Source: a virus
DNA: 64,000 nucleotides
IMG/VR virus record: IMGVR_UViG_3300045988_176633
Reading direction: 5' to 3' (one strand)
Shown: one piece after another, positions 10,447 to 60,007 of the stretch
Layout of the letters: each line of letters starts with the position of its first letter
Numbering within the stretch: position 1 is the first letter of the stretch
The notes under the pieces: model-generated
The model's input: only the letters and a program-made list of their open reading frames with translations
What the model was told of the DNA's origin: nothing
Database searches by the model: none
Program-made: the position numbers and the translations under genes

Positions 10447-10455
10447 AAATCTATA

Positions 10456-11091: not shown

Positions 11092-11103
11092 AACTTTATT
11101 CGT

Positions 11104-32072: not shown

Positions 32073-32085
32073 ACGATTAAAAATT

Positions 32086-32128
32086 AAAAAGGGTCCCAAG
32101 TCCATTTTTGGACAACAGGACCCTTTTT
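32086..32128 (-). terminator. intrinsic terminator (11-bp outer stem with an inner hairpin)
   Basis: aaaaagggtcc ... ggacccttttt. Followed on the - strand by TTTTTAATTTTT. Lies after the stop at 32153. Confidence 0.65.
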
Positions 32129-33161: not shown

Positions 33162-33195
33162 ATTCTTTTAATTTTGCTCTTTTATTATGTCGTAA

Positions 33196-33214
33196 AGATA
33201 CAATGTTTGTATCT
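33196..33214 (-). promoter_or_regulatory. palindromic intergenic motif, copy 5
   Basis: agatacaa-tgt-ttgtatct, a perfect 8-bp arm pair. Lies 31 nt upstream of the ATG at 33161. Confidence 0.5.
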
Positions 33215-33259
33215 AGCGAGCAACAAAATCAAAGAAGAAAACAATAAAAATCTACTAAT

Positions 33260-35766: not shown

Positions 35767-35769
35767 ATT

Positions 35770-38064: not shown

Positions 38065-38110
38065 TTTTAATTATGACCTAAAGGTCAGACCTTTATTTCA
38101 ATGGAGCAAC
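38065..38110 (-). repeat. copy B of the ~45-nt conserved element (see 3527..3571)
   Basis: On the - strand it reads GTTGCTCCATTGAAATAAAGGTCtGACCTTTAggtcaTAATTAAAA. Intergenic, between the primase stop and the next ATG. Confidence 0.7.
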
Positions 38111-39123: not shown

Positions 39124-40574
39124 ATCACAGTGACTTCTTGAGTTTCTTTCTTCTTACCCTTACGTAGTTTATCCTTTCTCTCAGGTTTATCGGCAGTCGT
39201 TGATATAACTTCGGAACTATCATTGTATAAAGCCATAGTACGCTTACGATTATAGAACCTACCACGACCATAATCAGTAGCGATAGAAAAGATTTCTTGA
39301 CTACTCTTGTAATCACGAAGTTTGTCAACAAAGATCCTACATTTCTCATCTTTCTTCTCTTGCATTGTAATATTTCCAGTAAATACAAATGAATAAGGCT
39401 TCACAAGAGTTCTATCACCTTCAGTATTAGAACGGTCTATATGTTTCATTTCATTATTCCAGACATCCATAGGTACATCACCTGTTTGTGTAGCTGTTAT
39501 ACCAACCATTTTAAATTCGACACAAATATCTTTAAATAATTGTGAACATTTCTGTAATCTAAACTTAGTAAATTCTGGATCATTGTCTATCTTCTTGTTT
39601 ACACCAGTCATTAGAAGATCTAACGAATCGACGATCAATAGTTGTGGAAAATGACCATATACTTTTTGATATTCGATACATAGATTTCGAATATCAACCA
39701 TTGATGCTTGACCGAATTTTTCAAATCCATAGATATCAATATCTTGACCAAAAGATTTCATATCTCTTAAAGTTTTCATGATCTGTTTTTCATCTTCTTG
39801 TTTTAAAAGACCTTTTTTGATGTCTATGTAACTTTGATTTGTCCACATTTGATCGTATTTGTCTGTACAAGCATCAACACCACCTTCTAATTGTATGTGT
39901 AGCACTGAAATGCTTTCAAGTGCTGCTGCATATCCATGCCATTTTAATACGGTTGATTTTCCAACACCAGATCTCATAATCCACAATACCGTATCTCCTG
40001 GATCTGCGCCACCATAACTAATATCATCAAGACGATCAATTCCCAAAGAAACTTTATTTTGGACTTTAGCGAGCTTATTTTCATCATATCTCTTTTTCAT
40101 CCTTTCTTGAAATCCTTCAAATACTCGAATAAATTTTCCACCAGTCTTTCGAAGTGATATTTCTAATATTCTTTTACTTTCTTCTGCATTGACTTTAATC
40201 GCTTCATCTCTTTTACCTTCTTCGTATAAATCATGAACCTTTTTACTAAGAAGTTCAAACTCAGTCTCGCGAATAAAAGATTCTAGTTGATCAATAATTA
40301 ATTCTTTGTCAACTAAACGAGCCTTTTTAATTTCTTTGATTGATTCTTGAACAGAATCATTATCAGCATATTTCTGAGCAATAACTCCCAAAGAAGGTGT
40401 TACTTCTTTCCCAATGAATTGTTCGACAGCTTCTTTCAATAGAAACTTATAACCGACCCACTCTTTAGGAATTAATTGATAAGTCATATGACCCGAAACC
40501 ATTCTCATGATATTCCCATCAATGAACATCAATTTGAATAACTCTGCCATAAAATTTTCATTCAACTTTCTCAT
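39120..40574 (-). CDS. dnaB: DnaB-like replicative DNA helicase
   Basis: RecA-fold C-terminal domain with Walker A MRSGVGKST and Walker B LLIVDSLDLL. Overlaps the primase gene by 4 nt. Confidence 0.75.
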   Translation of the reverse strand: MRKLNENFMAELFKLMFIDGNIMRMVSGHMTYQLIPKEWVGYKFLLKEAVEQFIGKEVTPSLGVIAQKYADNDSVQESIKEIKKARLVDKELIIDQLESFIRETEFELLSKKVHDLYEEGKRDEAIKVNAEESKRILEISLRKTGGKFIRVFEGFQERMKKRYDENKLAKVQNKVSLGIDRLDDISYGGADPGDTVLWIMRSGVGKSTVLKWHGYAAALESISVLHIQLEGGVDACTDKYDQMWTNQSYIDIKKGLLKQEDEKQIMKTLRDMKSFGQDIDIYGFEKFGQASMVDIRNLCIEYQKVYGHFPQLLIVDSLDLLMTGVNKKIDNDPEFTKFRLQKCSQLFKDICVEFKMVGITATQTGDVPMDVWNNEMKHIDRSNTEGDRTLVKPYSFVFTGNITMQEKKDEKCRIFVDKLRDYKSSQEIFSIATDYGRGRFYNRKRTMALYNDSSEVISTTADKPERKDKLRKGKKKETQEVTVI

Positions 40575-43366
40575 ATCGTGTTTATTTGAACCGTTATATG
40601 ACTATCTTCACGAAGACTATTAATCGCTATGAATGAGCTCATACAAATATCGTCATGAGCACCAACAGCTTCTAATTTACCTCTGTCACTTCTAAAAGTA
40701 ATAGAAGAGAATTCACCAAAAACAATCTTCACCATATCTCTTGTTGGTCCTACTGCATATGGTATTTTTATTTGACCTCTTTCAAACATTGCCGAAAGAC
40801 TTGGTAAACCAGTATGAAGATCCTTCTTATTGCCTTCTGTTGTTGTAAAGGTCTCAATGTTTTTCAAACCTCTTTCCCTTGCTAGTCCACTTAAAATACT
40901 TTGAAAACCATTAGCTTCACATACAATTTTATTGGGTTTGAATAAAGTATTAAATAATACAATTTTATCAACTTGCTCATTGTGACTCATTCCTTTCTGT
41001 CTATGGATCGCTATCAAATAATAATTATCCATAAAATCGATCCCCCATACTGTGTAAACTGTATAGTCTGCACCGATATTACCAGAAACTGCAAAATCAC
41101 AACCAACAACAACCCTTTGTAATTTAAATGGAAAGTAATCAATGGTATCTGCAAAAGAAATATTTTCCATCCCAACTGTCGATCTCATTAAAAACTCATA
41201 AGGGAAAATGGTACTACTATCTGCAATAGGAACTACTAAGTATTCACGACTAAATACCATTGTACCTAACTCATCTTTTTTCTGAATAATATCATCAAAA
41301 GTATATCTATCTGGAGCAAGAGGACGTCCATCTGGAAATATTATCGGATACTCAAAGACTGCAAAACGTTTATCAGCTTTAATAATATTATAAAGTTCAT
41401 TAGGAGCAGTTGAATATGGTGTACCAGAAATCAAGAAATACCCATAAGGTTCAACAATGGGACTGATTGTCCCTCGAAAAGTTTCTTTTAATTTTTCTCT
41501 CTGTTCATCACTATAAATAGAACTTTCATCTGGCATATCATCAACTATAGCTGCACCAACATGTAAACCACGAATCATAGAATCTTTACCACGAACATGT
41601 AATATTCCTCCGTTTTCAGTTTCAATCATCGTCTCTCCTAATTTCGCTTTTTTATTAGGATTAAGTTTGTTACTTAAAATTGGATTTGTCTCTATTTCTT
41701 CAATGATTTTCCCAACGTGAACCTTAGCAAGAGTTATCATATTAGTAATCAGAGCGGTTTCCTTTCGATTCTTATTATCAATCGTATCACCAGCATAAAA
41801 AATTGGTTTTGTATAACTATATAATCTCCATAATGGGAATGCGTAAGCAAACTCATAACTATTATGAACAACAGTCCCATCTGATAATAAAAATTTATGA
41901 TCTCCATCTAAAGAAAAACCATAATAATCACCTTTGCCAACTGGAGTTATTGATAAACTACTTCTACTAAAATCTTGAATTTTCTCAATCTTTAGACATT
42001 TCTTTCTTTCGATCTTAGTAGGAATCGTGTCGATATCTCCAGAAATATTACATTGATATTGGATATTACCTTTTAAATCATATTTTTTACCATTTGTTTT
42101 TAATGTTGTACTAACAACTCTTTTTCTAACTGAAACACATCTAAATCCTAAAGATAAAGCTAATTGTCTAACATCATTTATTAATCGCTCATTTGAATTC
42201 GCAAAAATAAATGACTTTCCTCCATTTTTCTTAGTCTTCTCTAAAGAACCGTCTGTATCGATAAGACCTGCTAACAATTGAAGTCTCTGTTGTCGAGAAC
42301 TTCTCATATAAATATCTGGAATATGTTTATTTCTAAGAACATTTAACTTTTCGAGATTTTCATTAAGAAAATTTCTTTTTGATCCAGGAATATTTACAAT
42401 ACATGAATATAATTCTTTTTGATGAAAAGAACAAAATCTTCTTTTGTGAATCCCTCCCAATCTATCAGCATACTGATCCAAATAAAGACAAATCTCTGGA
42501 TCAATTGTAGTTATAACTTGATTATGAGAATTTCCATCACCTAACCATAATCCTAAAAAATAAGGTTCTATAGAAAGAGATTTTTCAGGAAGATCCCAAC
42601 CCTTAACTCTATATCCATAGATCTTTTTATATCTATATAACCATCTTTGAGGAATTTTTTCAACTGGAATCTCCTCTTTACAAATTTCTCTTCCTATATA
42701 TTTTTTACCTTTCGAACCATGATCAATATATTTTTCTTTATCCCATTGAATACAAACCAAATGACCCTCATTTACACAATAATCCTTTGCATAAGTCTGA
42801 TGAATTTTATACATAGGTGCTTTACCTCTATGCAATTGAAGAACTTTCCTTGGTGTTGAATCTGGTCCCATAACTAAATCACCGACTTTGACGTCTTGAA
42901 CTTTCTTTAGAGATCCATCATACATAACCACTAACTCATTGAGACTCATACATTTCCCAGAACCGCGACTACAAAGATAACTAGACCAAGGAAATAATTG
43001 AGTTAAATTCCCCCATTCTAAATTTCTCCATCCCATCATAAAATTAGATAAGACAGTCGCACAAAAATAATTGAAAGACAATATTCTCAATCTCTCATCC
43101 ATAGCTGCAGCTAGATTGTCAATGTACGAAAGATTTTCAGTATCTAACGATCTACCGAAATTCATTGCCATATCAGTTTGATTAACAATCTCTGTTAGAA
43201 GTTTATCTATGTCCTCAGAATAACCTTCTAACAATTGATTGATCGAATGTGCAGGCAATCTTTCAATTATATCGTTTGCCGCAGAATATAACCTCCTGTT
43301 TTGTAAGAGTGTAAATTTGCTAGCTGGTTTATCTTGTTCAGTCCAATCTTGTTGTTTGATTATCAT
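40571..43366 (-). CDS. terL: terminase large subunit, intein-containing precursor
   Basis: Walker A CSRGSGK|..|S is split by the intein. Walker B-like AAIVDDM and coupling motif ISGTPYS. RNase H-like nuclease residues VGCDFAVS, ANGFQ and HDDICMS. Confidence 0.75.
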   Translation of the reverse strand: MIIKQQDWTEQDKPASKFTLLQNRRLYSAANDIIERLPAHSINQLLEGYSEDIDKLLTEIVNQTDMAMNFGRSLDTENLSYIDNLAAAMDERLRILSFNYFCATVLSNFMMGWRNLEWGNLTQLFPWSSYLCSRGSGKCMSLNELVVMYDGSLKKVQDVKVGDLVMGPDSTPRKVLQLHRGKAPMYKIHQTYAKDYCVNEGHLVCIQWDKEKYIDHGSKGKKYIGREICKEEIPVEKIPQRWLYRYKKIYGYRVKGWDLPEKSLSIEPYFLGLWLGDGNSHNQVITTIDPEICLYLDQYADRLGGIHKRRFCSFHQKELYSCIVNIPGSKRNFLNENLEKLNVLRNKHIPDIYMRSSRQQRLQLLAGLIDTDGSLEKTKKNGGKSFIFANSNERLINDVRQLALSLGFRCVSVRKRVVSTTLKTNGKKYDLKGNIQYQCNISGDIDTIPTKIERKKCLKIEKIQDFSRSSLSITPVGKGDYYGFSLDGDHKFLLSDGTVVHNSYEFAYAFPLWRLYSYTKPIFYAGDTIDNKNRKETALITNMITLAKVHVGKIIEEIETNPILSNKLNPNKKAKLGETMIETENGGILHVRGKDSMIRGLHVGAAIVDDMPDESSIYSDEQREKLKETFRGTISPIVEPYGYFLISGTPYSTAPNELYNIIKADKRFAVFEYPIIFPDGRPLAPDRYTFDDIIQKKDELGTMVFSREYLVVPIADSSTIFPYEFLMRSTVGMENISFADTIDYFPFKLQRVVVGCDFAVSGNIGADYTVYTVWGIDFMDNYYLIAIHRQKGMSHNEQVDKIVLFNTLFKPNKIVCEANGFQSILSGLARERGLKNIETFTTTEGNKKDLHTGLPSLSAMFERGQIKIPYAVGPTRDMVKIVFGEFSSITFRSDRGKLEAVGAHDDICMSSFIAINSLREDSHITVQINTI
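41861..42952 (-). mobile_element. LAGLIDADG-type intein (364 aa) in the TerL P-loop
   Basis: Starts CMSLNELVVMYDG and ends GTVVHN followed by +1 Ser. LAGLIDADG motifs are YFLGLWLGDGNS and LLAGLIDTDGSL. Boundaries were checked codon by codon. Confidence 0.85.
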
Positions 43367-47131: not shown

Positions 47132-50100
47132 TTATTTCCAACCTGACGGAATCAAATTTGAATAAGATATCTTTGAACATCCTTTGAAAGTTTGATAATG
47201 TGATGCTGACGAAGGAGCTAAATCCCAAAGCCAACCCAGTGTAATTGGTTTAGATTCTGCAATAATAGGCATAGATTGTAATTCACTACAATTCAAGAAA
47301 GCATAATTCCAGTTAGTAACTGTAGAAGCTATATTTTGCGATATAACAATCACTTGTAGCGAGTTATAAGTTGAATCACCAACTCTTATACAACCATTCA
47401 AAAATTCTGACATATTCTGTAAAGAAGTGCAACCGTTAAATGTACCATGAGAAGACTCAGCTCCTCCATCTGGAGCCCATTCTGTTAAATTAGTACAATT
47501 CTTGAAACAAGAAGCTACTGAAACCAATCGAGATTGACCAGCAAAAAATCTTGGTGGAATTCTTTGTACACCAGAACCTTCAAAAGCTCTTGCCCAAGTA
47601 GTCACATTTCCATTCTCAATCTTACATCCAGAAATATCTGTCAATGATTTACAATCAATGAAAGACCAACTGAAACTAGAAGCACTAGTGGGGAAGCAAT
47701 CTGAACCTATACTACTCAGTAATATGCAACTATGAGCTAATACATTGAAATTAGTAGCTCTTGTGCAATTCCTGAAACATCTAGCTGGAATACTTCTCAA
47801 ATTGGTACAAGAAGAAACTAATCCTTCGAAAGTAGTTGCGTATACACAACTATCAAATAAACCAGAAGGAATCGAAGAAATTCCACTGTTTGCAAACGTG
47901 TAATAAAACGATTCTGCATTTCGTGGGAAAATAGAACTTCCAACACTTGAAAGCGAACTACAACCATTGAAAGCTGACTCAAAATCAGTACCATTTCTAA
48001 AAGGACTACCTGATACACTCGAAAGCGATTTACAATCTCTGAATACACTAGCGAACAATGTAAGATTACTTCCGAATAAGTCCAAAGGCACACTTGTTAT
48101 TCCAGAACCTCTAAAACAATTACTAGCATCACTTCCTGATACATTTAATAAAAGTCCAGAAGGAATACTTCTTAGAGCTGTACAATTCCTAAACCAACTC
48201 TCTATTGATCCACTAATATTTGGTGAACCAGACGCTAAACTTGATAAACTTGTACAACCATTAAATACACTTGTTCCATTTATTGGAAAATATCCTGGCC
48301 ATTGTGTAACAGCTAAGACGCTTGTATTATTCTGACAATTAAAATTCAACGTACTAGGGTTGGTCCTAGATCCTCCTACTATCTTCAACTCATTACCAGA
48401 CCATTCGTAATCAACTGAAGATCCAAAGCTCGGGAGTCTTTGACTGCTCATCCGAAGGATCAATGCCTTGTAAAGTGCGACAACAAGACCTGTTGTATTG
48501 ATAGCTATCCGTCTGGTTGTTATTGGTAAGCAACCAGATTCTTCTACCTTCAGAAGGACATACGCCGAATATGGAGCGTTTATAACGTATTTCCCTTGAT
48601 AATCAGAAGATCCATTGCCACTACTAACTACCACGTTAGAATCCGCAGATTCATATACTGTATATGATATATTGACTCCAGATGCGTTTGAACCATCAAT
48701 TAAAGTCGTCACTGTAAATTCTCGTAACGAATAAGTCAATGAAACTTGTTGATTAGCATCATTATTCGAAACTTGAACAGTGCCTTCTTTATCATAGTAA
48801 CCTACAGCTTGTATCGTCCAATTATATAAACCATTTCTCTTATCTGGAAACGTCACTTTTCCACTAGTATCTGTAGTCTTTGTATCACCGTCTAATACTA
48901 TTGTTGCATTAGGGACAGCATTACCATTAGTATTTGTAACTGTAAAATTAATATTATATGTCTTGTTCGTCAATAATACATTGATTGTTTGAGGTGTATC
49001 TGTAATCGACACTTCACCTGAAACAGAAGTATATTCTGGACGCTTAGAAACTTCGTAATCATACGAGTCAATTGGGAGGGTGTATTTTGCCTTACCTTGA
49101 CTATTTGTAATTCTGGTAATATTATTACAAACAACAGTCGCAGCTTCCACTGGTTTCCCTAAATCATCGACAACCATGAAAGTTACTTGACCATTTCGTC
49201 TAACCAAATTTATATCAAACACATAAGGAGCACTGTTCACGACAAATTGTCCTTGTTGTGAAGCATAAATCGTTTTCTTCGCCGTCCAATTATAGGAACC
49301 ATTAGGTAGTTCAGTCGATACTTTTCCTTGGCTATCTGATTCCCCAGAATAAGATCCTAAAGTAACAGTTGCGCCAACTGAAATTTGACCTTCTTCTCTT
49401 ACAGTTGCAGTCACTTGATACATCTTTTGTGACATTGTTATATTGACCGTTTCTGGACCTCCATTTACACCAAATAAATCTGTAATAGTGTGATATTCGT
49501 TTAATGTCGCTGTATAATTAAAAGATCCATCAGGTAAATTGATAGTTGCTTGTCCCTGTGCGTTTGTAGTTATAATAGGATTGTTTTCCACCTGAATAGA
49601 AACACCAGAAAGTTTTTTATTATTATCGTCTTGTACTACAAAAGTAACAACATAAACTTTTTGGTTCATTCTAATTTCAATATCAGAATCCTCATCAACA
49701 GAAATTGTATTTTTATAATCATTGTAACCAGCTTTCGTCGCTGTTAAAGAATACGATCCAGCTTTAACAATGAAACTCACTTGACCACTTGAATCAGATA
49801 TTTTAGTTGAACCGGCAAAAGTTACTGAAACACCTGTCAACAATGAAACTACCCCTTGATAATTAACACCTCTTGTTGTAAATGTCACATTATAAGTAGG
49901 AACTGGATTCATTGTTATATTTTGAGTCACTGGGGCATTAGTTACAGTCACAGATCCTGTAACTGGCAACCAATCAATTTTTTCAATTCGATAATTGAAA
50001 GTACCTACTAAAACATCTTTAAAAACAGCTTGTCCTTGTTCATTGGTATCAATATATGTATTGTTAAAATTAATTCTAGCTCCTTGAATAGGATTTGAAG

Positions 50101-51865
50101 AAGAATCTTTCACAATAAAAGTTACATCAAAAATAGGGATTAATTGCATCGTGACATTCTCAATCATATCGTCACGAACAAGGACTGACTTATCAACCGG
50201 ATAATACTTTTCCTTCTCAACTGTATACAGATATAAATCTGGATAAGCCATGAAGAATGTACTACCATCTTGACCTGTTGATTTAACCTCATTATTGAAT
50301 TTAACAACAGCTCCTAAAATAGCTTTAGCTTGTTCATTCTTGACAACAAAAGTTACCTTACGTTTGTAAAGTTCTCCTTGCATTTGTATATAACAAATCT
50401 GCTCATCTCCTTCGATTTCTTCTTCTACATATAGAACATTATTGACAATAGAAATGAAAAGGTTTTTTTCAACTGAATAAAGATAATCGCCAGGATAAAG
50501 ATCAAGAGTTACTTCACCATTAATATCTGTTTGCAATTCTTGATCTGCTATTGTAATAGTAGCTCCTTTAATATATTCTTTTCTTTCAGAAAAAACCTTG
50601 AAACGTACAGTTGTTTTTGTAAGAGCTTTAATCTCTTCACTAGCAAAAATATTTTTATATGAAACTAAATAAGTTTCTATAAATTGATCTATAGTAGATG
50701 TAGAAGAATAAGAATTATTCCTATAATAGGAGGCGATTATGTTTTTCTCCCCTAGATAACCTTGATAGAAAGGTAAATATATTGGTTTGATCTTTATATC
50801 ATAAATATTTAAATTTGAACTAACTTTAGTTCGATCTTGAACCAAATACAAAGACATGTATTTGATACCTTCTACAAATCTTAATCCTCTTCCATTAGGG
50901 AAATTCAGGGCTACTTCGTCGACAAAACTTCTATTTTTCTTTGAAATTGTTGCTCTTAACTCATAATAAATATCGGCGTTGTTTAACGTAACAGAAGCGT
51001 CATTTTTAACAAATGAATTGCTTTGTACAGTACCAATCGATTCAATACAAGAAACAGGTCTCTTCAATTCATCATAAACTTGGACTCCAAAAGTCAAATT
51101 CATGTTTTGAATATTATCTGTTTTTAAACGTAAAGAAACTTGATAAGCTAAATCTTCATCAACTACTAGAAGTTTATCTAAATCTCCTTCTGAACTGATT
51201 CCTACCAACTCATTTCCTATAAAAGTCATAGTTTGGATAGGTTCATTATCGTTGTCTACATCAGCTTGTAAAATAACACCACTAGGATTGATTAATGGAT
51301 ATTTATCTAAATTTTCAATATTGCTTGAACATTCGTAGGCTTTGGTTATATTCTCAACTGTATCTGTCCTATTCCAAGTAGGAGAGCTATGTCCTAATGT
51401 CCAACCACTATCTTTAGGAGCTAGAAGGGCAAAGATGAATTCATTTAAATCGTTGTATCGAATCAAACGAAGAAGTTCTCCTAATATAGTACCTTCTTTT
51501 GAAACGATATCCATACGACCTCTTTTTCTATACTCTTCTACATAGTTGTTGAAAAGATATTGCATTTGTTCTGTCGTATCAACAGTATCGGTTACCAAAC
51601 CTCTTTCTTTGATAAAGATATCAAATAAGATCTTGTTTACATCAATCTCTTCGTATTGTCGTCCATATAATACAACAATCGCAAAAAGATGTGTCACAGA
51701 TCCCCAAAACGAAACAAAATCTTCATTTTGTTTATTAAAAAAAACAGGAAGAATACCTGGACTACATATTTTATCCAAGACATTCTGTGCCCAAGCCTGA
51801 ATTTTAATATCATTCTTTTCAAAGAATTTTTTAAATATAGTTCTATTATATATTATATCTGCCAT
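47132..51865 (-). CDS. large tail-fibre/adhesin-like protein with CarboxypepD_reg-like repeats and a C-terminal BspA-type leucine-rich-repeat domain
   Basis: About 9 tandem ~80-aa modules (V.F.V.d....l.gA.V......t.Td..G......l..G.Y.Y.v). These are followed by at least 14 units of F(R/N/K)(N/G/D)C(T/S/K)(S/N/A)L(S/T)S(I/V/L). Confidence 0.7.
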   Translation of the reverse strand: MADIIYNRTIFKKFFEKNDIKIQAWAQNVLDKICSPGILPVFFNKQNEDFVSFWGSVTHLFAIVVLYGRQYEEIDVNKILFDIFIKERGLVTDTVDTTEQMQYLFNNYVEEYRKRGRMDIVSKEGTILGELLRLIRYNDLNEFIFALLAPKDSGWTLGHSSPTWNRTDTVENITKAYECSSNIENLDKYPLINPSGVILQADVDNDNEPIQTMTFIGNELVGISSEGDLDKLLVVDEDLAYQVSLRLKTDNIQNMNLTFGVQVYDELKRPVSCIESIGTVQSNSFVKNDASVTLNNADIYYELRATISKKNRSFVDEVALNFPNGRGLRFVEGIKYMSLYLVQDRTKVSSNLNIYDIKIKPIYLPFYQGYLGEKNIIASYYRNNSYSSTSTIDQFIETYLVSYKNIFASEEIKALTKTTVRFKVFSERKEYIKGATITIADQELQTDINGEVTLDLYPGDYLYSVEKNLFISIVNNVLYVEEEIEGDEQICYIQMQGELYKRKVTFVVKNEQAKAILGAVVKFNNEVKSTGQDGSTFFMAYPDLYLYTVEKEKYYPVDKSVLVRDDMIENVTMQLIPIFDVTFIVKDSSSNPIQGARINFNNTYIDTNEQGQAVFKDVLVGTFNYRIEKIDWLPVTGSVTVTNAPVTQNITMNPVPTYNVTFTTRGVNYQGVVSLLTGVSVTFAGSTKISDSSGQVSFIVKAGSYSLTATKAGYNDYKNTISVDEDSDIEIRMNQKVYVVTFVVQDDNNKKLSGVSIQVENNPIITTNAQGQATINLPDGSFNYTATLNEYHTITDLFGVNGGPETVNITMSQKMYQVTATVREEGQISVGATVTLGSYSGESDSQGKVSTELPNGSYNWTAKKTIYASQQGQFVVNSAPYVFDINLVRRNGQVTFMVVDDLGKPVEAATVVCNNITRITNSQGKAKYTLPIDSYDYEVSKRPEYTSVSGEVSITDTPQTINVLLTNKTYNINFTVTNTNGNAVPNATIVLDGDTKTTDTSGKVTFPDKRNGLYNWTIQAVGYYDKEGTVQVSNNDANQQVSLTYSLREFTVTTLIDGSNASGVNISYTVYESADSNVVVSSGNGSSDYQGKYVINAPYSAYVLLKVEESGCLPITTRRIAINTTGLVVALYKALILRMSSQRLPSFGSSVDYEWSGNELKIVGGSRTNPSTLNFNCQNNTSVLAVTQWPGYFPINGTSVFNGCTSLSSLASGSPNISGSIESWFRNCTALRSIPSGLLLNVSGSDASNCFRGSGITSVPLDLFGSNLTLFASVFRDCKSLSSVSGSPFRNGTDFESAFNGCSSLSSVGSSIFPRNAESFYYTFANSGISSIPSGLFDSCVYATTFEGLVSSCTNLRSIPARCFRNCTRATNFNVLAHSCILLSSIGSDCFPTSASSFSWSFIDCKSLTDISGCKIENGNVTTWARAFEGSGVQRIPPRFFAGQSRLVSVASCFKNCTNLTEWAPDGGAESSHGTFNGCTSLQNMSEFLNGCIRVGDSTYNSLQVIVISQNIASTVTNWNYAFLNCSELQSMPIIAESKPITLGWLWDLAPSSASHYQTFKGCSKISYSNLIPSGWK
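48467..50608 (-). repeat. array of about 9 protein-level CarboxypepD_reg/Big-like repeats within the 1577-aa gene
   Basis: Periodicity was read from the translation. DNA-level identity between units is low. Confidence 0.6.
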
Positions 51866-51992
51866 AATTAAGTTGTTTCCAACGATTCAAAGTTACTAAA
51901 ATGAAAGCAAACTATAACCAACAACAGTGTCAAAGCAAACTTTTTCAACCGCATAAAGATATCTACTTCCTTCATAACAAACAACATTTATT

Positions 51993-52874
51993 TTGTTTTT
52001 AAACACCTCAATCACTCTCCAGAAGGCAGCTAAACTTGTACAGATCACGACTCCACTGAATACAGAAACTGCAATTAATATTGAAAGTGGATTTTCAAAG
52101 TTAGAGTGGTGTTTAGTACACGCAGGTGCAGGTGGAGGAGGTGGAAATGTAAGATATCCAGGCGGAGGAGGTGGAGGAGGAAGTACTATTCTTGGAGAAT
52201 TATTAACTTTATTAGATGGCGGCACTTATACTGGAGGTTATATTATAAGAAGTGGTGGAGTTGGAGGCGAAGGTAGAACTTCTATAGCTCCAGGAGGTAT
52301 AGGAAAAGAACCAGATATGGCTAATATCTGGTTTAAAAAGAATGGAAGTTATGTTTACAATATTTTACACCAATTTAATGGTAACGGAGGATCAGGAGCT
52401 GGTAGTGGAGGAAGTAACGGAGGTCCTGGTAGTGGTCTTCTTAATACATTTGGTGTAAAACTTGGTATAGGTGGCGGCGGTGGTGGAGGTAGCGAAGGAG
52501 AAACCGATTTTGCTGCAGGTGGTGCAGGTGGTGCAGGTGGTGCAGTTTATTATAACGGTACAACTTATAATGGAGGAAAGGGTTACAGCCCATCTAATAT
52601 TTCAGTTCCAAATGGTGGCGGCGGCGGCAGTGGTGCTAGTAGTACAAATATAGGAAAGAATGCTGTGAATTACATAGGAGCATTAAGTGTTGGTGTACCT
52701 AATGATTTTGAAAAATATGGAATAACTGGAAGCGGTGAAGGTGGAAATGGAGGAAAAATAGGTTCAGGTGGAGAAAGTTCTCTTCCAAACTATGGTTCAG
52801 GTGGAAAAGGTGGAAAAATAAAAGAAAGTGGATTATCTGGACAACAAGGTATTCTTTTTATTTATTATCATTAA
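51993..52874 (+). CDS. promoterless, ATG-less alternative C-terminal (Gly-rich) cassette for the baseplate-J fibre protein
   Basis: The only long + strand ORF not antisense to a gene. It begins at a TTG. Residues NTSITLQKAAKLVQITTPL are identical to the 2097-aa protein. It ends GILFIYYH, versus GIIELYYK in the expressed copy. Confidence 0.6.
   Translation: MFLNTSITLQKAAKLVQITTPLNTETAINIESGFSKLEWCLVHAGAGGGGGNVRYPGGGGGGGSTILGELLTLLDGGTYTGGYIIRSGGVGGEGRTSIAPGGIGKEPDMANIWFKKNGSYVYNILHQFNGNGGSGAGSGGSNGGPGSGLLNTFGVKLGIGGGGGGGSEGETDFAAGGAGGAGGAVYYNGTTYNGGKGYSPSNISVPNGGGGGSGASSTNIGKNAVNYIGALSVGVPNDFEKYGITGSGEGGNGGKIGSGGESSLPNYGSGGKGGKIKESGLSGQQGILFIYYH
52002..52055. repeat. inverted repeat, left copy (54 bp, perfect)
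   Basis: aacacctcaatcactctccagaaggcagctaaacttgtacagatcacgactcca is the exact reverse complement of 53896..53949. Confidence 0.95.
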
Positions 52875-52888
52875 TTTAAATAAAACAA

Positions 52889-52912
52889 GGGCCTGGAAAT
52901 GAATCCAGGCCC
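52889..52912. terminator. bidirectional hairpin terminator between the two convergent cassettes
   Basis: gggcctgga-aatgaa-tccaggccc. A GC-rich 9-bp stem with A/T-rich flanks on both sides. Confidence 0.7.
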
Positions 52913-52920
52913 TATTCAAT

Positions 52921-55900
52921 TTATTTATAGTATAATTCAATAATACCTTGTCCTCCATTTCCTCCGTTTCCACCTTTATATGAAGAATTGTAAACTCTTC
53001 CACCTCCTCCTCCACCAGCTCCATACTCTCCTAGACCACCGTTTCCACCATCGCTAGTAGTGCTGCTACCATTTCCACCATTTCCACCTTTACCAAAGGA
53101 TCCACCTCCACCACCTCCTCCTGAAGAATTACTTCCACTTGTTCCACTTCCACCTGTTCCACCATCACCTTTTGAAGGTAAAAGAATATCTGGAATGACT
53201 GTATAAGTACTAGTTCCAAATCCACTTCCACCTGTTCCGTAATTTCCACCATCAATTGTTGATCTATTGGTATAACCAGAACCACCATCTCCTCCTGTAC
53301 CATTTCCTCTATTTAAATTTCCTCCTTCACTAACACCACCTTTACCTCCTCCTGTTGTATGCGCTAGACCTTTACCACCTATCGCTCCTTGAATACTACC
53401 AGCATTTACACGGTTATTTCTAGCACCTCCTCCTCCACCACCTCCCCAATCGGGTGTAGATGATTCTTGATAAGAACCACCACCACCACCTCCTCCTCCA
53501 CAACCCTTATTATTGTTAGAAGGGTTAACACTACCACCATCTCCTCCGTCTCCCCTACTTTCATTGTTTAATTGAGAAGCACCGTATCCCCAACGACCTG
53601 AATATGCTTGATGTACTACATCTTCAATAGTAACAATACTCTCGTAACCATCATTACCAGTATAACCTTGAGTAGTCGTACTACCTCCTGCACCTCCTGC
53701 ACCTGCATTACCAACTACGAGTTTTAAATTTGATATACTTGTTGTATGATCTTTTATATAAACAATTCCACCTCCTCCGCCTCCACCTCCTGCTGCAATA
53801 TTGTTTCCACCTCCTCCGCCTCCACCTCCTGCTGCAATAAGAAAATCAACATTTGTATATCCTGGTTCTATTTGTTGATTAATTTCTGCACCCAATGGAG
53901 TCGTGATCTGTACAAGTTTAGCTGCCTTCTGGAGAGTGATTGAGGTGTTGATTGAATCATTCGACCCAGACATCGTCACAGTTCCAGTCTTAGTCACATA
54001 TCCAGCCGCACTCACTGAATAGCTTAACGTTCCTGCTGCAATTCCAGCTTTTGAAGCTGCTCCACTTGAATTTGTCGTTAAAGTCCCCGTTGCTATTCCA
54101 GTTAACGTTATTTTTGCTCCTGAAATAGGACCGTTAGCGTCAGAAATAGTAAATTGTGCTGTATATAAAGCAGTTAAAGCGATATTGATAGTTGATGTAC
54201 TTGAAATTGTATACGATTGACTAAACGCTTTCCAATATGTACCTGCATCAATTGCTATTGTATGACTTCCGTAAAGTACATTTGACATTGTGATGTTACC
54301 AGAAGAATTTGTCGTACCTTTTGATGTACCATCCAATTTCACTGTGACACCATTTCTATTAACACCCGCTCTTTTAACATTCACAACAAATGTATAATAT
54401 CTCAAAAGAGCATAAGTTGCACTCTGACTATGAGAACTTCGACTTACAGTTACACTACCAGTCGTATCTTTGTAACCAGATTTTGAAATCGTGTAAGTGT
54501 AAGAACCTGGTTTCACATTTGGAATTGTAGCAACTCCACTTGAATCTGTCGTACCTGTAAAAGTACCTAAACTTGAGTTGACAAGTTTAACAGTTGCACT
54601 ACCGACATTTGCACCAGACGTTGTATTTTCTTTAACTGTCGCTGTAAATGTAACCAAATACTGTAAACTTGCATTTACAGTTTGATTACTCAAACCAACT
54701 GTAACATTACCCGACCAAGTTTGATATCCACTTAATTCAACAGTGCAAGCATAAGCTGCTGACTGTGATTGCATTGTTACAGCTAATTGACCACTTGAAT
54801 TTGTCGTACCCTTTGATGTACCAGCAACTTTCACTGTCGCTCCAGAAAGAGCTGTACCAGCGTCATCTTTAGCGATAAATGTAACTGTTACTTGACTGGT
54901 TAAAGTAATTTGTTGATTAACGTTTGTACCATTAACTGTTACACTTCCTGATTTAGCTTGATAAGGTGATTTAGCAGCACTACTCCAATTGTACGTACCA
55001 TCTATTACATTAGAGAAAATCGCCTGACCACTTGCATTTGTAGTTACAGTTTGATTATTCATAGTAACTGAAATACCAGAAAGAGCTGTACCAGCATAAT
55101 TAACAAAAGTCAAAGTAACCGTACTATACTTCTCTAAAGTAACATTGATCGTCTGATTTGCATTGACAATGTTAAATGAACCAGAAGCTGATCTATATCC
55201 ACTTAAAGAAGCAGTCCAAGAAACGGCACCATTTAAAGTTGCATCGTTTTTAGCACTAGCAGCTAAAATCCATTGACCGCTGGAATTTGTCGTTCCATTT
55301 GCAGTAGAAGTTCCACCAATAGTTTTAACATTACTAATACTAACAGAAGCCCCGTTTAAATTCGTTGTCTTGTACTTAACATTAAAAGTAACACCCCAAT
55401 ATTTGTAGTTCTGCATTTGTACTTGAACCGTTTTATCCGCAGAACTTACTGTTGTGCTTCCAGGTTGTTGTTTGTATCCACTAGCATCTGTTGTGTAAGT
55501 ATAATTTCCATTAGGGACATCAACTGAAATATTTCCATTAGAATCTGTCGTACCAGATTTGACTGTCGTACCAGAACTATTCTTGATAACAACAGTAGCT
55601 CCACTTAAATTTGCCACACCATTTTTAACATTTAAAGTTAATAACCCTCCATGAACCATAGTTAAGTTCACATACGAAGTTTCATCCTCTTTAACATTGA
55701 CAGTACCAGTTATCGTTTGATAACTTACAAGACTTACTTTGTAAGTATGATTCCCTGCTGACAGCGAAACGTTGACTTGTCCATCAACACCTGTTTGATA
55801 GTTGGTAACGTTATCGATCAAAATATTAGCACCTTGTAAAGGATCAGTTCCATCTGTAACTGTAAAGACAGCTCTTTTGCCTCGTTTCAATGAAATAGCT

Positions 55901-58900
55901 ACTGTCTTATTTGCATTAGCAATAGTATCGTCTCCTTCACCTGTTGAATAATCTGAGAAAGACGCTCCCCAATGAAACGAACCGTTTATCGCTTGAACCT
56001 GAGGTGTACGTCCTGCGTCATTTGTCGTTAATTCAATCGACGATTGACCAGCAGGAAGAACAATAGCTTCACCACTTACAACAACTTTGGCTCCTGATAA
56101 GATCGTCCCTTGTTCTCCTGTAACTGTAAAATCTAATAAATAAATCCTATCAATTTGAACATTGATCGTATCAATGCCTGTAACAGTTATTTGAGTTGTC
56201 GTACTGATGTAATTCTGTTTTGTGATAGAAACTTCAAAATCACCTTTTGGAAGTTGTAAAACTGCTTCACCACTTGCATTTGTTAAAACTGATTGACCCT
56301 TTGCCGATACAACAGCATCTTGAACTAAAGCAGGTGTTGGAGTTGTTTTATCTCTTACCACAAATGTGATCGGATAAGTAACTGGATCTAAAGAAACTTG
56401 TACACTTGTATCTGAATTACTTACCGTTACAGAACCTGTCTTTGTTTGAAATTCTGTTGCAGATATCTCATATTGATGTATACCATTTACCAAACCAATC
56501 ACCGCAATACCACCAGCATTAGTCTCTACCGTTATTCCTTCAACTGTTATCGAAGCACCTTCAACTGGAACACCTTCACTCGTAACAGAAAAGATAACGT
56601 TCCAAGGTCTCAATACCATTGGTACATCTACAGATACATTGGAATTATTAACAACTAAAGTTCTATCAACATCTACATAACCAATTTTAGTCACTGTATA
56701 GTCATAAGAACCATTGATTAACGTCAACTTCACTAAACCATCTTGACCTGTTGAATATTGTTGACCATTTATATTGATAACTGCTCCTTGAATAGGAGTG
56801 TTTCCGTCTTTGACAGAGAAAGTTATCGACCAGGGATAATCAACCATTTTAGCGACAACGCTAACATCGTTATCTTTCACCAGAACAGATCCTGAAAAGT
56901 CATAATAACCCAATTTTTCAACCTTATAAGGATAGGTCCCATTTTGCAAACCAATTTGCACTTTACCACCTTCATCGGTTACAAGTACTTGATCTGAAAT
57001 AGATACTAAAGCATCTTGAATGGGGTTGTTCTTAGAATCGACAACAGTTATGAAAACATCGTAATGTCTGAAATCTAACTGATAGACGAAATCAGCGTCT
57101 GATGTATCAATGTTAAAATTAATCGTTAAATCGTCATAAATTGGATTTGTGATTGTACCAGTATATTCACCATTTGTCAATCTAAAAACAACTAATCCAT
57201 TGCTATTGGTACGAGCAACTAATCCATTGTTCAACGTTATTAACGCATCTGGAATCACTTTACCAGAAACAAGTTCAATGACCTTAATAGTAACATTATA
57301 CTTGTAAAGATCCATTTCGATAGTTCTTGTTTCATCTTGATTTAAAACCACAATAAGAGCTTGTGTATCTACATATCCTGGTTTACTAAATTTAGCAAGA
57401 TAACTTCCATTGATCAAACTAACTTGAACCTTACCATCGTCATCTGTCACATAACTATCACTACCTATCTCAACTAAAACACCTGAAATAAAATTCTCAG
57501 AATTGAGACCTTTTACGAAAATTGTTTGTACCCATTTATGATAATATAAAGTAACTGGTACATAAACATCTGAATTATCAACAACGACAGAACTTCCTTC
57601 ATTAGAATCAAAACCTAATTTTTCAACTGTATAAGGATAGGTCCCATTTTTCACCAACACTGTTGCTTCACCGTTGACATTAGTTGTTAAAGTTTGATTA
57701 GCAATAGAAATGGTTGCGTCTACAACTGGTACACCAAATTGATCTTCAACCATGAAACTAACCTGAAATGGAGCTAATTCTAATACAATACCAATGTAAA
57801 CCGGCGCATTCAATACAACAAATTGTCCTTGTTGTTGTTTATACTTTTCTTTACTAGCAGTATAAATGTAATTACCATTTACCAAAGAAATAGTCGCTAA
57901 ACCATCTTCATCTATGATAACAGATCCACTACCAACAGAGATTCTCACACCCGACAACGGATTACCATCTTCATCTGTGATAGTAAAATAAACTGGTTGT
58001 CTAAGTGCTAATGCACTATCATTTAAACCTTGAAATAAATCCTCTTGTCCTGCAGGATAAAACATAGGAGAGAGTTCACTTCCAGCATCGTATAAAACAA
58101 TACCTTCAAGATTTCTCATTACGAATCCTTTAATTCTAGGAAGTTGATTAGGTGGAACTTCTTGGTCGTAATATGGAAAGAAATATTCGTCAGGAACATA
58201 TTTGACACCTTCAGCATTCTTCACGATACCAAGTAGATCATCCCATTGAACGATCTTACCTGCTTCCCAGAATCGAAAGTCGAGATATTTTGTCAAAGCT
58301 ACCTGAATATTTTTTCTTACTGTAGCTACATCGTAAGAAGGATCAATTTCTATTCGAAAATCCATCCCACGCTCACTACCAATAAAAAACCATTCAGCAT
58401 TCTTTAATTGAATCCCAACAACGTTTCCTTCGAGGTTTAATTCAAAAAGTCCAAAATAACTTTTAGATTTCTCTAATAAAGTCTCTAATTCATCCTGTGT
58501 GAATAAAATTCCATTTTGACTTACTAGATAAAGATAAAAGATTCCATCTTCTCCCAACCCAACATTTAATACTTTCAAAATACGATCATCGATATTTTGG
58601 AATATTTGAGTATAATATTCCAACGTTCCTTTAGAAAGTGTGTTGAGGTTAGTCATGATCCTAATACGAAAAGTCTCATCATCTTCACTATCTCTACCAC
58701 CTGTAGCCATGTATTCATTAGTGCATTCAATATGACCACTAGGAGCAGGAGTGACGTTGATAATACTATTTGCATCGACATTTGTAACCAATCCTTGGTT
58801 AACACTTCTGACACTTACATATGCATAACCAGATCTACCAACTGTAACAGATTCATTTACAGAGAAACGAATACCGTTTTGATTTACAAAGAAATTAGTT

Positions 58901-59214
58901 TCATTGTAAATAGTTCCCGGGTCTGCATAAACTCTCACATAAGTAGATGAACCAAGAGCACCTTTTCTTGGACTAACCCCAAAAAGTGCCGCTGATTTAT
59001 CGAGATATTCTCCTGTAGCTGTTTCTGGGAATATCTTTGCTTCTGTGATAGCAATATCTTTGATCGCTTTTTGTGCGACTTTTGCAGTACCAAAAGCCAC
59101 AGCATTTAAGACTGAACCATCAGCTACATTCGTAACTTTATTGGTCTTGTCTAAAAACAGCTCGATCCAAAGATTTTTAAGCGTCGAAATTGTATTACTA
59201 ACTTGCGTTATCAT
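52921..59214 (-). CDS. baseplate J-like protein fused to a long repeat stalk and a Gly-rich C-terminal domain (2097 aa)
   Basis: The N-terminal ~390 aa show the Baseplate_J pattern (...ATGEYLDKSAALFGVSPRKGA...NEYMATGGRDSEDDETFRIRI). About 15-18 CarboxypepD_reg-like modules follow, then a C-terminal 324 aa with poly-Gly GGxGG repeats. Confidence 0.75.
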   Translation of the reverse strand: MITQVSNTISTLKNLWIELFLDKTNKVTNVADGSVLNAVAFGTAKVAQKAIKDIAITEAKIFPETATGEYLDKSAALFGVSPRKGALGSSTYVRVYADPGTIYNETNFFVNQNGIRFSVNESVTVGRSGYAYVSVRSVNQGLVTNVDANSIINVTPAPSGHIECTNEYMATGGRDSEDDETFRIRIMTNLNTLSKGTLEYYTQIFQNIDDRILKVLNVGLGEDGIFYLYLVSQNGILFTQDELETLLEKSKSYFGLFELNLEGNVVGIQLKNAEWFFIGSERGMDFRIEIDPSYDVATVRKNIQVALTKYLDFRFWEAGKIVQWDDLLGIVKNAEGVKYVPDEYFFPYYDQEVPPNQLPRIKGFVMRNLEGIVLYDAGSELSPMFYPAGQEDLFQGLNDSALALRQPVYFTITDEDGNPLSGVRISVGSGSVIIDEDGLATISLVNGNYIYTASKEKYKQQQGQFVVLNAPVYIGIVLELAPFQVSFMVEDQFGVPVVDATISIANQTLTTNVNGEATVLVKNGTYPYTVEKLGFDSNEGSSVVVDNSDVYVPVTLYYHKWVQTIFVKGLNSENFISGVLVEIGSDSYVTDDDGKVQVSLINGSYLAKFSKPGYVDTQALIVVLNQDETRTIEMDLYKYNVTIKVIELVSGKVIPDALITLNNGLVARTNSNGLVVFRLTNGEYTGTITNPIYDDLTINFNIDTSDADFVYQLDFRHYDVFITVVDSKNNPIQDALVSISDQVLVTDEGGKVQIGLQNGTYPYKVEKLGYYDFSGSVLVKDNDVSVVAKMVDYPWSITFSVKDGNTPIQGAVININGQQYSTGQDGLVKLTLINGSYDYTVTKIGYVDVDRTLVVNNSNVSVDVPMVLRPWNVIFSVTSEGVPVEGASITVEGITVETNAGGIAVIGLVNGIHQYEISATEFQTKTGSVTVSNSDTSVQVSLDPVTYPITFVVRDKTTPTPALVQDAVVSAKGQSVLTNASGEAVLQLPKGDFEVSITKQNYISTTTQITVTGIDTINVQIDRIYLLDFTVTGEQGTILSGAKVVVSGEAIVLPAGQSSIELTTNDAGRTPQVQAINGSFHWGASFSDYSTGEGDDTIANANKTVAISLKRGKRAVFTVTDGTDPLQGANILIDNVTNYQTGVDGQVNVSLSAGNHTYKVSLVSYQTITGTVNVKEDETSYVNLTMVHGGLLTLNVKNGVANLSGATVVIKNSSGTTVKSGTTDSNGNISVDVPNGNYTYTTDASGYKQQPGSTTVSSADKTVQVQMQNYKYWGVTFNVKYKTTNLNGASVSISNVKTIGGTSTANGTTNSSGQWILAASAKNDATLNGAVSWTASLSGYRSASGSFNIVNANQTINVTLEKYSTVTLTFVNYAGTALSGISVTMNNQTVTTNASGQAIFSNVIDGTYNWSSAAKSPYQAKSGSVTVNGTNVNQQITLTSQVTVTFIAKDDAGTALSGATVKVAGTSKGTTNSSGQLAVTMQSQSAAYACTVELSGYQTWSGNVTVGLSNQTVNASLQYLVTFTATVKENTTSGANVGSATVKLVNSSLGTFTGTTDSSGVATIPNVKPGSYTYTISKSGYKDTTGSVTVSRSSHSQSATYALLRYYTFVVNVKRAGVNRNGVTVKLDGTSKGTTNSSGNITMSNVLYGSHTIAIDAGTYWKAFSQSYTISSTSTINIALTALYTAQFTISDANGPISGAKITLTGIATGTLTTNSSGAASKAGIAAGTLSYSVSAAGYVTKTGTVTMSGSNDSINTSITLQKAAKLVQITTPLGAEINQQIEPGYTNVDFLIAAGGGGGGGGNNIAAGGGGGGGGIVYIKDHTTSISNLKLVVGNAGAGGAGGSTTTQGYTGNDGYESIVTIEDVVHQAYSGRWGYGASQLNNESRGDGGDGGSVNPSNNNKGCGGGGGGGGSYQESSTPDWGGGGGGGARNNRVNAGSIQGAIGGKGLAHTTGGGKGGVSEGGNLNRGNGTGGDGGSGYTNRSTIDGGNYGTGGSGFGTSTYTVIPDILLPSKGDGGTGGSGTSGSNSSGGGGGGGSFGKGGNGGNGSSTTSDGGNGGLGEYGAGGGGGGRVYNSSYKGGNGGNGGQGIIELYYK
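53766..53839 (-). repeat. tandem 35-nt duplication (period 39 nt) encoding IAAGGGGGGGGN twice
   Basis: ttccacctcctccgcctccacctcctgctgcaata occurs at 53766..53800 and again at 53805..53839. Confidence 0.85.
53896..53949. repeat. inverted repeat, right copy (54 bp, perfect)
   Basis: Reverse complement of 52002..52055. Lies inside the 2097-aa ORF in the same codon phase as the left copy. Confidence 0.95.
53950..57996 (-). repeat. array of about 15-18 protein-level CarboxypepD_reg/Big-like repeats within the 2097-aa gene
   Basis: The repeating pattern V.F.V.D..g.Pi.gA.V.i.g...tTd..G.a.i.L.nG.Y.Y.v.k.GY was read from the translation. Confidence 0.6.
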
Positions 59215-60007
59215 ATATTAAAAATGATTTAATCCCTTCAATTCGCTCAAGCCAATTTTCGGGAAGTTTATCTCGTTTTTCTAAATTATCTTTGGCCCAT
59301 AAAGGTTGTAAATTTCTGAAATTGAAACAAATACGTTGTTGATTAGGATCTGAAAGATCAAAAGAGGCACAAGGAACAATATGATCAACGTGCCATTCAC
59401 CGTAATTATCCCAACTCATTCCTTCAACAAACTGATTCTCAAGGTGTTTCTTGAGATCCTCAAGAGAGCAACCGATATATTTAATTGTGTGGTGTAATTT
59501 ACGATTTTCTTTTAAAACTCTATACAATCTATTTCGTAAATTTAACTTCAAAATAAAATTAATATCTCGTTCTCTTCTTTTTTCTTTTGAATATTGCAAA
59601 ACATATTTACTGATTTTCTCTTTATTCTTTCGCTGATATTCTTTGTGATATTCTTTTAAATACTCTTGATTTTTTAAATTCCAATTCTTTATTCGAATAA
59701 ACTGAGCCTCTCTGTTGTTTTTATAATATTCTTTGTGTTGTTTTCTTAATCTTTCTTTATTGTTTAAATAATAAAGATGCGACCTTTCTCTCTGTTTATC
59801 TTTATTATTTAAACGTCTCTCCTGTGATTTGACTATAATTTTAACTCTATTCTTCTGATAATAAGAATCACTACTTTCTTTATAACAATCCTTACAACGA
59901 AGACTCAAACCATCAGATTTACACTTACATTTATAAAAGTTATCGAGAGGGAGTTCTCGTTTACAACGAGAACAAACTTTTAGACCGGTTTCAAAATTCG
60001 CTTTCAT
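59198..60007 (-). CDS. free-standing HNH homing endonuclease-like protein inside the baseplate module
   Basis: N-terminal CSRCKRELP...CKDC, basic repeats (YY.KN...), and C-terminal EWHVDHIVPCASF...NLQPLWAKDNLEKRDK. Confidence 0.65.
   Translation of the reverse strand: MKANFETGLKVCSRCKRELPLDNFYKCKCKSDGLSLRCKDCYKESSDSYYQKNRVKIIVKSQERRLNNKDKQRERSHLYYLNNKERLRKQHKEYYKNNREAQFIRIKNWNLKNQEYLKEYHKEYQRKNKEKISKYVLQYSKEKRRERDINFILKLNLRNRLYRVLKENRKLHHTIKYIGCSLEDLKKHLENQFVEGMSWDNYGEWHVDHIVPCASFDLSDPNQQRICFNFRNLQPLWAKDNLEKRDKLPENWLERIEGIKSFLIYDNAS

Follow-up and report, generated by a model that had tools for sequence, protein, structure and literature searches.

Host-range switching by DNA inversion is textbook knowledge for temperate enterobacterial phages that carry the Gin or Cin invertases, and the recombinases dedicated to inversions of this kind include Gin of Mu, Cin of P1, Min of p15B and Rci of R64. 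In the present study, a locus of similar outline was analysed in a 64,000-nucleotide stretch of viral DNA (IMG/VR record IMGVR_UViG_3300045988_176633), referred to here in its whole length as the window. It consists of a giant baseplate-fibre gene whose 3′ end, encoding the glycine-rich tip of the fibre, lies on a 1.84-kb segment bounded by two inverted copies of a 54-bp coding repeat, together with a second, silent tip cassette in the opposite orientation. It is interpreted here, with moderate confidence, as a two-cassette inversion switch for a receptor-binding fibre tip that is flipped by homologous recombination and not by a dedicated invertase. No switch of this kind in large gut Bacteroidota phages, and none that works without a recombinase, came up in a literature search.

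The repeat is formed by positions 52002 to 52055 on the plus strand and by the reverse complement of positions 53896 to 53949, which are identical at 54 of 54 positions. This exact match, reported in a first-pass annotation made from the letters of the window, was borne out by direct comparison and by a shuffle control, in which 100 dinucleotide shuffles gave no repeat match with up to three mismatches tolerated, while the window itself yielded just the two copies. The pair is also the sole inverted repeat of at least 40 nt within the 64 kb, where none is expected by chance. That annotation had the inner flanks diverging after a single nucleotide, which was overstated, since imperfect identity runs 13 nt further on the inner side (63/67, 94%), reaching position 52068 from the left copy and position 53883 from the right one. 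Both copies are read in frame as NTSITLQKAAKLVQITTP, and the repeat constitutes an 18-codon linker of the fibre gene, placed at the junction of the constant part and the variable tip. The right copy sits in the minus-strand gene at 52921–59214 (2097 aa), 324 aa from the C-terminus, and the left copy opens a plus-strand open reading frame (ORF) at 51993–52874, which has 293 aa, a TTG start and no ATG. The shared peptide and the placement in the 2097-aa gene were as first described, and so was the standing of the TTG-started frame as the lone real plus-strand ORF, given that all other ORFs of at least 100 aa, shadows of minus-strand genes excluded, lie on the minus strand. Independent expression of this frame was considered and rejected: it lacks an ATG and opens just 9 nt before the repeat, stops are found upstream in relatives, and its first 18 aa repeat the fibre linker. 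Sigma-70 promoter scans of the locus were uninformative.

The segment between the two copies (52056–53895) comprises the silent cassette B (52056–52874, plus strand; 272 aa and a stop, glycine-rich), a GC-rich hairpin (52888–52913) and the expressed cassette A (52921–53895, minus strand), which provides the last 324 aa of the fibre and its stop. The symmetric hairpin that had been noticed between the converging cassettes is real, with 10 pairs, folding free energies of -20.7 and -24.5 kcal/mol and z-scores of -4.7 and -6.0 on the two strands. It is terminator-like on both strands and conserved among relatives, and the orientation of its loop follows that of the segment. Beyond the right copy extends the constant part of the fibre gene (53950–59214, minus strand), with a Baseplate_J N-terminus and beta-sandwich repeats. 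Beyond the left copy, a non-coding outer flank (51866–52001), conserved among relatives and without similarity to the fibre's constant part, separates the silent cassette from the next fibre-like gene. That gene (47132–51865, minus strand), directly downstream of the segment, encodes a second giant fibre-like protein of 1577 aa with CarboxypepD_reg repeats (phrog_9915), and its upstream region is this conserved outer flank.

Relatives were collected by the exact repeat or by a codon-degenerate repeat pattern, which gave about 20 loci (L numbers below) from IMG/VR and from ENA, JGI and Logan metagenomes. Their samples are from the human gut, and their fibre backbones are 94–99% identical to that of the window. 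A common layout was observed in all of them, in which the constant fibre is followed by the repeat, the expressed tip, the hairpin, the reversed silent tip, the second repeat, the conserved non-coding flank and the next fibre-like gene. The repeat carries 0–5 substitutions in every one of them, with an identical outer boundary throughout.

The proposal of a Mu G-segment-like cassette switch gained its support from near-identical assemblies that carry the segment in both orientations. Genomes are designated here by their expressed and silent cassettes, in this order; the window, L005, L043, OGCZ01000075 and L047–L049 are A/B carriers, and L042 and L046, which are inverted relative to them, are B/A carriers. 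In L042 (ERZ772822), a 2040-aa fibre (P0013) is tipped by cassette B and A lies downstream, silent; positions 10280–12089 of this locus are colinear with positions 52002–53808 of the window, and the adjoining fibre gene aligns the opposite way. L046, from a different sample, is a second B/A isomer. The inverted segment is 95.5% identical to that of the window over 1813 nt in L042 and 94.7% identical over 1854 nt in L046. Against the A/B genome L043, the figures are 98.95% for the segment and 97.4–99.2% for the backbone in L042, and 98.97% and 98.7%, respectively, in L046. Thus, between the two isomers, segment and backbone are each about 95–99% identical. On the fibre strand, the hairpin loop reads ATTCATTT in the A/B genomes and AAATGAAT in L042, and this reversal indicates that the whole segment between the repeats has turned. 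Non-reciprocal gene conversion of the pilE/pilS type was rejected for the same reason: the B/A isomers keep A as a parked silent copy and the terminator loop is flipped, so that the exchange was reciprocal and a one-way conversion from a silent donor is excluded. The decay that had been named as an alternative outcome, with loss of the repeat or broken silent cassettes, was not seen, since relatives retain the repeat and their silent cassettes are open in frame. Many assemblies are broken in the segment or at its edge (L004, L007, L009, L010, L014, L042, L046, L050 and L051), which could result from mixed orientations or cassettes in the samples, or from the repetitive glycine codons.

The two cassettes of the window belong to a pool of about ten tip types (A, B, B′, C, D, E, F, G, H and H′), with 30–58% amino-acid identity. 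The pairs seen were A/B, B/A, B/C, D/E and G/B′; C/H′ and F/G were deduced from contigs that end within the silent cassette, and further silent copies, of A, G and H, were seen on contigs beginning within the segment. Four of the types (A, B, C and G) take the expressed position in certain relatives and the silent one in others. For instance, A is silent in L009, L042 and L046, and B is fused in frame to the fibre in L006/L002, L011, L042 and L046. All complete silent cassettes are intact ORFs in frame with the repeat, and the partial ones are open to the contig end, with the exception of L016. When B copies that are silent in both compared genomes were aligned, the synonymous divergence (dS) was 0.19 and the nonsynonymous divergence (dN) 0.046, a ratio of 0.24, which indicates protein-level selection on copies found silent. 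Among near-identical copies, nonsynonymous changes prevail, by 11 to 1 for A (window versus L005) and by 3–6 to 0 for close B copies, in comparisons that cover the window, L005, L042, L043 and L018 and whose pairs are not independent. This suggests diversifying selection on the tips or, alternatively, assembly noise in glycine-codon runs; a nonsynonymous excess would be the pattern expected of a receptor-binding surface. One silent cassette, E, is just 111 aa long and is identical in L003 (12167–12502) and L013 (1571–1906). What it retains is the N-terminal strand region together with the C-terminal GGQGIMVLYYHD motif; it could represent a tip pared down to the minimum, or else have arisen by internal deletion.

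The fibre protein itself begins with a Baseplate_J domain (PF04865, 59.8 bits; phrog_6, baseplate wedge, E = 2.8e-28), continues through about 14 CarboxypepD_reg/PEGA/SpaA repeats and ends in Gly_rich_2, and its neighbouring genes include those for the tail-tube initiator and a baseplate protein. Cassette A, taken within the fibre, passed the cut-off of the Pfam family PF21722 (Gly_rich_2; 33.3 bits, cut-off 24.3), and cassette B stayed below it at 21.5 bits; a type B protein with 86% identity (P0003) carries a precomputed PF21722 annotation. A profile built from all cassette types matched the fibre gp24 of cyanophage Pam3 (7YFW, 7YPX) marginally (E = 0.08), and within this match the C-terminal GxQGIxxxxY motif is common to the cassettes and to gp24. 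The distal glycine-rich domain of Pam3 gp24 combines GGGGxGG motifs with a hypervariable tip and, according to its authors, recognises the receptor and resembles the S16 gp38 adhesin (PMC9608196). A search with the tip profile matched 6 proteins among 1.84 billion representatives, and the tip family, as this profile defines it, is very narrow. In phages whose backbones are 95–99% identical, the tip is hypervariable. From its distal C-terminal position, this hypervariability, the pattern of selection and the weak homologies, we infer that the tip binds a receptor. Among the baseplate genes lies a 269-aa HNH/endonuclease VII-like gene (59198–60007, minus strand; phrog_1035) that overlaps the start of the fibre gene; it is missing from L006/L020 and L042 and was found in L043 and L046, and it is, judging from this distribution, a polymorphic insertion of the homing-endonuclease type.

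The evolution of the repeat bears on how the segment is turned. At nt 18–21 the repeat has the alleles CCAG, TACA and TGCG, which encode Gln, Thr and Ala, respectively, and both copies carry the same allele in the 7/7 assemblies in which both are visible (five genome types), whatever cassettes adjoin. Similarly, the C36 variant is common to both copies in L003 and in L013. An allele born in one copy must therefore have moved to the other at least twice, which demonstrates homologous gene conversion between the inverted copies. The stretch of exact identity also varies in length, with 67 nt in L005, L043 and OGCZ01000075, 54 in the window, 53 in L006, 44 in L003 and L013, and 27 + 26 in L015. 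Cassette A occurs with three versions of its first 13 nt, TTGGGTGCAGAA in the window, CTGAATGCAGAA in L009 and CTGAATACAGAA in L005, L043 and L012, which approach the B sequence stepwise from the repeat side; conversion tracts with variable ends would give exactly such graded 5′ ends. Dyad symmetry within the 54-mer was not beyond chance, since 182 of 500 shuffles were equally good, and no hix, gix or Mpi-like core was found in the repeat, with 11/26 positions matching the hixL consensus and 13/26 the gixL consensus. These features appear to fit general recombination better than a fixed crossover. Regarding the recombinase-independent switch suggested by the first-pass annotation, the concerted evolution of the repeats, the variable boundaries and the lack of a dyad core favour it, if only indirectly.

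The absence of a recognisable recombinase, claimed initially for the window, held when all its ORFs of at least 100 aa were scanned, none of which had a Resolvase, Phage_integrase or Recombinase domain in Pfam. It was extended by Pfam to a whole genome of about 104 kb, a size given by contigs of 99–102 kb and a contig walk. The remaining 39.8 kb outside the window were walked in the relative IMG/VR contig 3300045988_168379 (94–98% identical) until re-entry at window position 1, and the scanned ORFs of this stretch (of at least 80 aa in most of it) showed no recombinase, while including portal, capsid, holin, amidase, sigma factor, NUDIX and BACON-domain proteins. When about 30 selected ORFs were compared with PHROGs, neither an integrase nor an invertase turned up. 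As no integrase is recognisable, the phage is probably virulent. The sole apparent exception, a 332-aa XerC-like gene beside the truncated silent cassette of L016, was rejected as an invertase and attributed to an assembly chimera with a Bacilli chromosome. In this contig (ERZ835051 NODE-808, L016 8800–10977), the phage is joined inside the silent cassette to a Bacilli fragment with a GNAT-like gene and xerC. An identical protein is found on a 556-kb contig, the XerC homologues come from Bacilli, the GC content falls to 26%, the coverage is 3.8x and no other relative has the gene; such a chimera is a trap for those seeking an invertase.

The window does encode general recombination functions, in agreement with the RecA, SbcCD and RuvC-type activities first ascribed to it. 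These are RecA (23156–24145, minus strand; Pfam RecA, E = 5e-80), which is the candidate strand-exchange enzyme, a Holliday-junction resolvase-like gene (19598–20098, minus strand; phrog_1770, E = 2.9e-12), which might act in the inversion, an SbcC-like gene with a LAGLIDADG intein (20095–23184, minus strand; LAGLIDADG_3, Hom_end) and an SbcD-like gene as its partner (24136–25173), the latter two matching phrog_77 and phrog_100.

According to the explanation favoured here, cassette B, without promoter or start, lies tail-to-tail with A behind a shared bidirectional terminator. A reciprocal exchange between the 54-bp copies would flip the 1.84-kb segment, which would join B in frame to the constant 1773 aa and turn A into the silent copy. 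The exchange would be made by the phage RecA and resolvase, by the host RecA, or by both. Additionally, co-infection recombination at the repeat and the terminator would replace the parked cassettes across the population, each genome holding two tips from the pool of about ten. Homologous recombination that turns the segment by way of a minimal coding repeat appears to be the best-supported mechanism, with the evidence leaning somewhat towards it; both this mechanism and the rate of switching are what we infer. A more far-reaching version can be put forward only tentatively, with chances a little short of even: a phage without a recognisable integrase, and probably virulent, would possess a reversible host-range switch with no dedicated invertase, whose 54-bp coding repeat is flipped by its own RecA and resolvase during replication, a minority of each burst would carry the other tip, and the repeat would also serve as a docking point for tip exchange between co-infecting phages, a distributed shufflon across the population. 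Such a switch would match, on the phage side, the phase-variable capsules of its Bacteroidota hosts.

The main rival is a hidden or host-encoded invertase, in which case an unrecognised site-specific recombinase, either a tyrosine or serine invertase of the Bacteroidota host acting in trans or a novel phage enzyme, would flip the segment and homologous recombination would just homogenise the repeats occasionally. This is regarded as less likely, but a number of points weigh against homologous recombination and towards such an enzyme. To our knowledge, every characterised tail-fibre inversion of phages and plasmids (Mu, P1, e14, p15B) uses a site-specific invertase, as do pilus-tip inversion systems, which rely on dedicated recombinases as well (see also bioRxiv 10.64898/2026.02.14.705889). 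Invertases are numerous in Bacteroidota hosts and could act in trans, most ORFs of the phage have no family match and could hide a novel recombinase, and the 40 kb beyond the window were read in a relative and not in the window's own genome. The outer repeat boundary, sharp and the same in every relative, also fits a defined site, although common descent would explain it equally well. Moreover, 54 bp is near the lower limit for efficient recombination of the RecA or UvsX type, and the switch might be slow. On the other hand, no Resolvase, Phage_integrase or Recombinase domain was found in the roughly 104 kb scanned, the repeat has no dyad core and is unlike hix, gix and Mpi sites, the exact repeat length and the inner boundary vary as graded conversion tracts, a probably virulent phage would need a suitable enzyme in every host, and the only recombinase found beside the locus belongs to the L016 chimera.

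A different view would make the locus an evolutionary store of cassettes and not a working switch, with rare historical recombination between co-infecting phages and a silent copy that is a passenger selected afterwards; the two forms would then not arise within one population on ecological time scales. The isomers were compared between samples, with no within-sample isomer pair; the short 54-bp homology and the variation of cassette pairs by genome, which implies that exchange between phages occurs too, are likewise compatible with a store. Nevertheless, such a store appears improbable, considering that the isomers occur in genomes about 95–99% identical with segments at 94.7–99%, that silent copies are under purifying selection and none has decayed, that the repeat copies are held identical within each genome, that four cassette types have each switched position, and that the architecture, including the shared bidirectional terminator, is kept in about 20 assemblies. 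It is scarcely conceivable that the inverted copy is an assembly artefact, that is, a mis-join in a low-complexity region rich in glycine codons. Contigs are indeed broken inside the segment (L004, L007, L009, L010, L014, L042 and L046) and L016 is chimeric there, but the same architecture was recovered from many assemblers, samples and repositories (IMG/VR, ENA and Logan), including contigs of about 99–102 kb. A further point against the proposed switch concerns its receptor-binding part, as the AlphaFold2 model of the tip, built on a 4-sequence alignment, was unusable (pLDDT 31.9).

Outside the group that shares the repeat, no close relative at the DNA level was found among GenBank phages, and exact-protein look-ups with the window proteins gave no match. 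The repeat pattern did not occur in any of 185,579 representative genomes of bacteria and archaea, which therefore gave no sign of a prophage and no clue to the host. Relatives with 57–75% identity in the Baseplate_J part, among them many gut phage contigs of 100–110 kb and the GenBank entry MT835500.1 from human faeces, carry other fibre modules without the repeat or a reverse cassette. The deeper relatives at the protein level, namely MT835500.1 (70%), metagenomic sequences (61–65%), Chryseobacterium phage MA9V-3 and the DAC/SJC phages of B. thetaiotaomicron, also lack the repeat and the silent cassette, and consequently the repeat sequence is not comparable across such deep divergence. In MT835500.1, a single C-terminal domain is preceded by a related linker, TKPNKLVQITS, and the linker peptide is therefore structural and older than the switch. 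By the Baseplate_J fibre protein, the nearest cultured relatives infect Chryseobacterium and Bacteroides thetaiotaomicron, and BACON-domain proteins are encoded in the 39.8-kb stretch of the relative; these two observations suggest that the host is probably a member of the Bacteroidota.

Other features of the genome were recorded along the way. Three essential genes carry homing-endonuclease inteins: the ribonucleotide reductase gene (6792–10103, minus strand; Intein_splicing and HNH_3), the SbcC-like gene described above and the large terminase gene (40571–43366, minus strand; Hint and LAGLIDADG). A likely fourth intein is present in a 657-aa structural-region protein of a relative (L024 652–2625). 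The DNA polymerase III alpha gene (27492–32105, minus strand) is found in two ORFs (30435–32105 and 27492–29459) with a 303-aa homing-endonuclease ORF between them (29573–30484, phrog_314), and it may be split or contain an intron. A minus-strand cluster at 35146–37177, with genes for GTP cyclohydrolase I, a radical-SAM protein (QueE-like) and a PTPS protein (QueD-like), suggests 7-deazaguanine modification of the phage DNA. Finally, a conserved intergenic element of about 45–74 nt with a small hairpin (AAAGGTCnGACCTTT) recurs at 3526–3570, 33180–33224 and 38066–38110, as well as in L034 at 1–64 and 7557–7617, and is possibly a promoter or terminator module.

If it is true that general recombination over a short coding repeat suffices, switches of this type would escape searches keyed to invertases, and they could be common in metagenomic phages. 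For gut ecology, the locus offers a means, concrete and open to test, by which a phage could track hosts that phase-vary their surface. Inversion may also explain some of the fragmented assemblies near tail-fibre genes. In phage engineering, the 18-codon linker with its repeat would represent a natural plug-in site for receptor-binding tips.

Among the systems already described, the closest are the G segment of Mu and the C segments of P1 and P7, with the serine invertases Gin and Cin, and the e14 element with Pin, in which constant 5′ and alternative 3′ fibre parts are likewise arranged on an invertible segment. As in Mu and P1, the inverted repeats fall within coding sequence, where the constant part meets the variable ones, and the cassettes converge; inversion there changes the receptor-binding end and hence the host range. 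However, no adjacent or recognisable invertase gene was present in the scanned ORFs of this phage, and its repeat of 54–67 bp has no gix-like dyad, whereas the sites of Mu and P1 are of 26 bp, with an imperfect dyad and a 2-bp core; a Fis-bound recombinational enhancer is a further feature of that family. The segment is also devoid of alternative chaperone genes (U/U′), and the protein is a 2097-aa Baseplate_J fusion with a glycine-rich tip that exists in about ten cassette types in the population. The locus would work like the Mu G and P1 C switches, yet by its sequence it lacks the two attributes that define that family, a recognisable invertase gene and gix-type sites.

In p15B, with Min, and in the R64 shufflon, with Rci, several alternative C-terminal segments can likewise be joined to one constant N-terminal part. 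Nevertheless, their pool resides in one replicon, served by one site-specific recombinase acting on short sites of 19–26 bp, whereas here each genome has one repeat pair and two cassettes and the pool is spread over the population. The Rci type also needs at least three segments and 19-bp sfx repeats, and the scanned ORFs contained no Phage_integrase domain. In mechanism, a possible parallel is found in the sap S-layer locus of Campylobacter fetus, whose nested, programmed inversion is described as recA-dependent. There, alternative genes have conserved 5′ coding regions, and general homologous recombination inverts the DNA lying between these, while the silent alleles, though complete, have no promoter; the differences are that the system is bacterial, that its repeats are hundreds of bp long, and that the promoter is moved instead of a C-terminal domain being spliced.

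The gp38/gp37 adhesins of T-even phages swap at conserved glycine-rich or His-box motifs, and these motifs, like the repeat considered here, act as substrates for homologous recombination that exchanges specificity. That exchange takes place between phages, with no intramolecular inversion or resident silent copy. The likeness extends to the proteins, whose tips are likewise glycine-rich, with GGGGxGG-type motifs between hypervariable stretches, and the receptor-binding tips of Pam3 gp24 and S16 gp38 belong here as well (PMC9608196). A further case is found in Anabaena cyanophages, where a 30-kb region flanked by inverted repeats exists as two genome isomers (bioRxiv 10.64898/2026.02.14.705889). 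What turns over in those phages is a module of many genes; no gene is spliced by it and the receptor-binding tip is not involved. Its authors consider it possible that the inversion proceeds without a dedicated recombinase (bioRxiv 10.64898/2026.02.14.705889).

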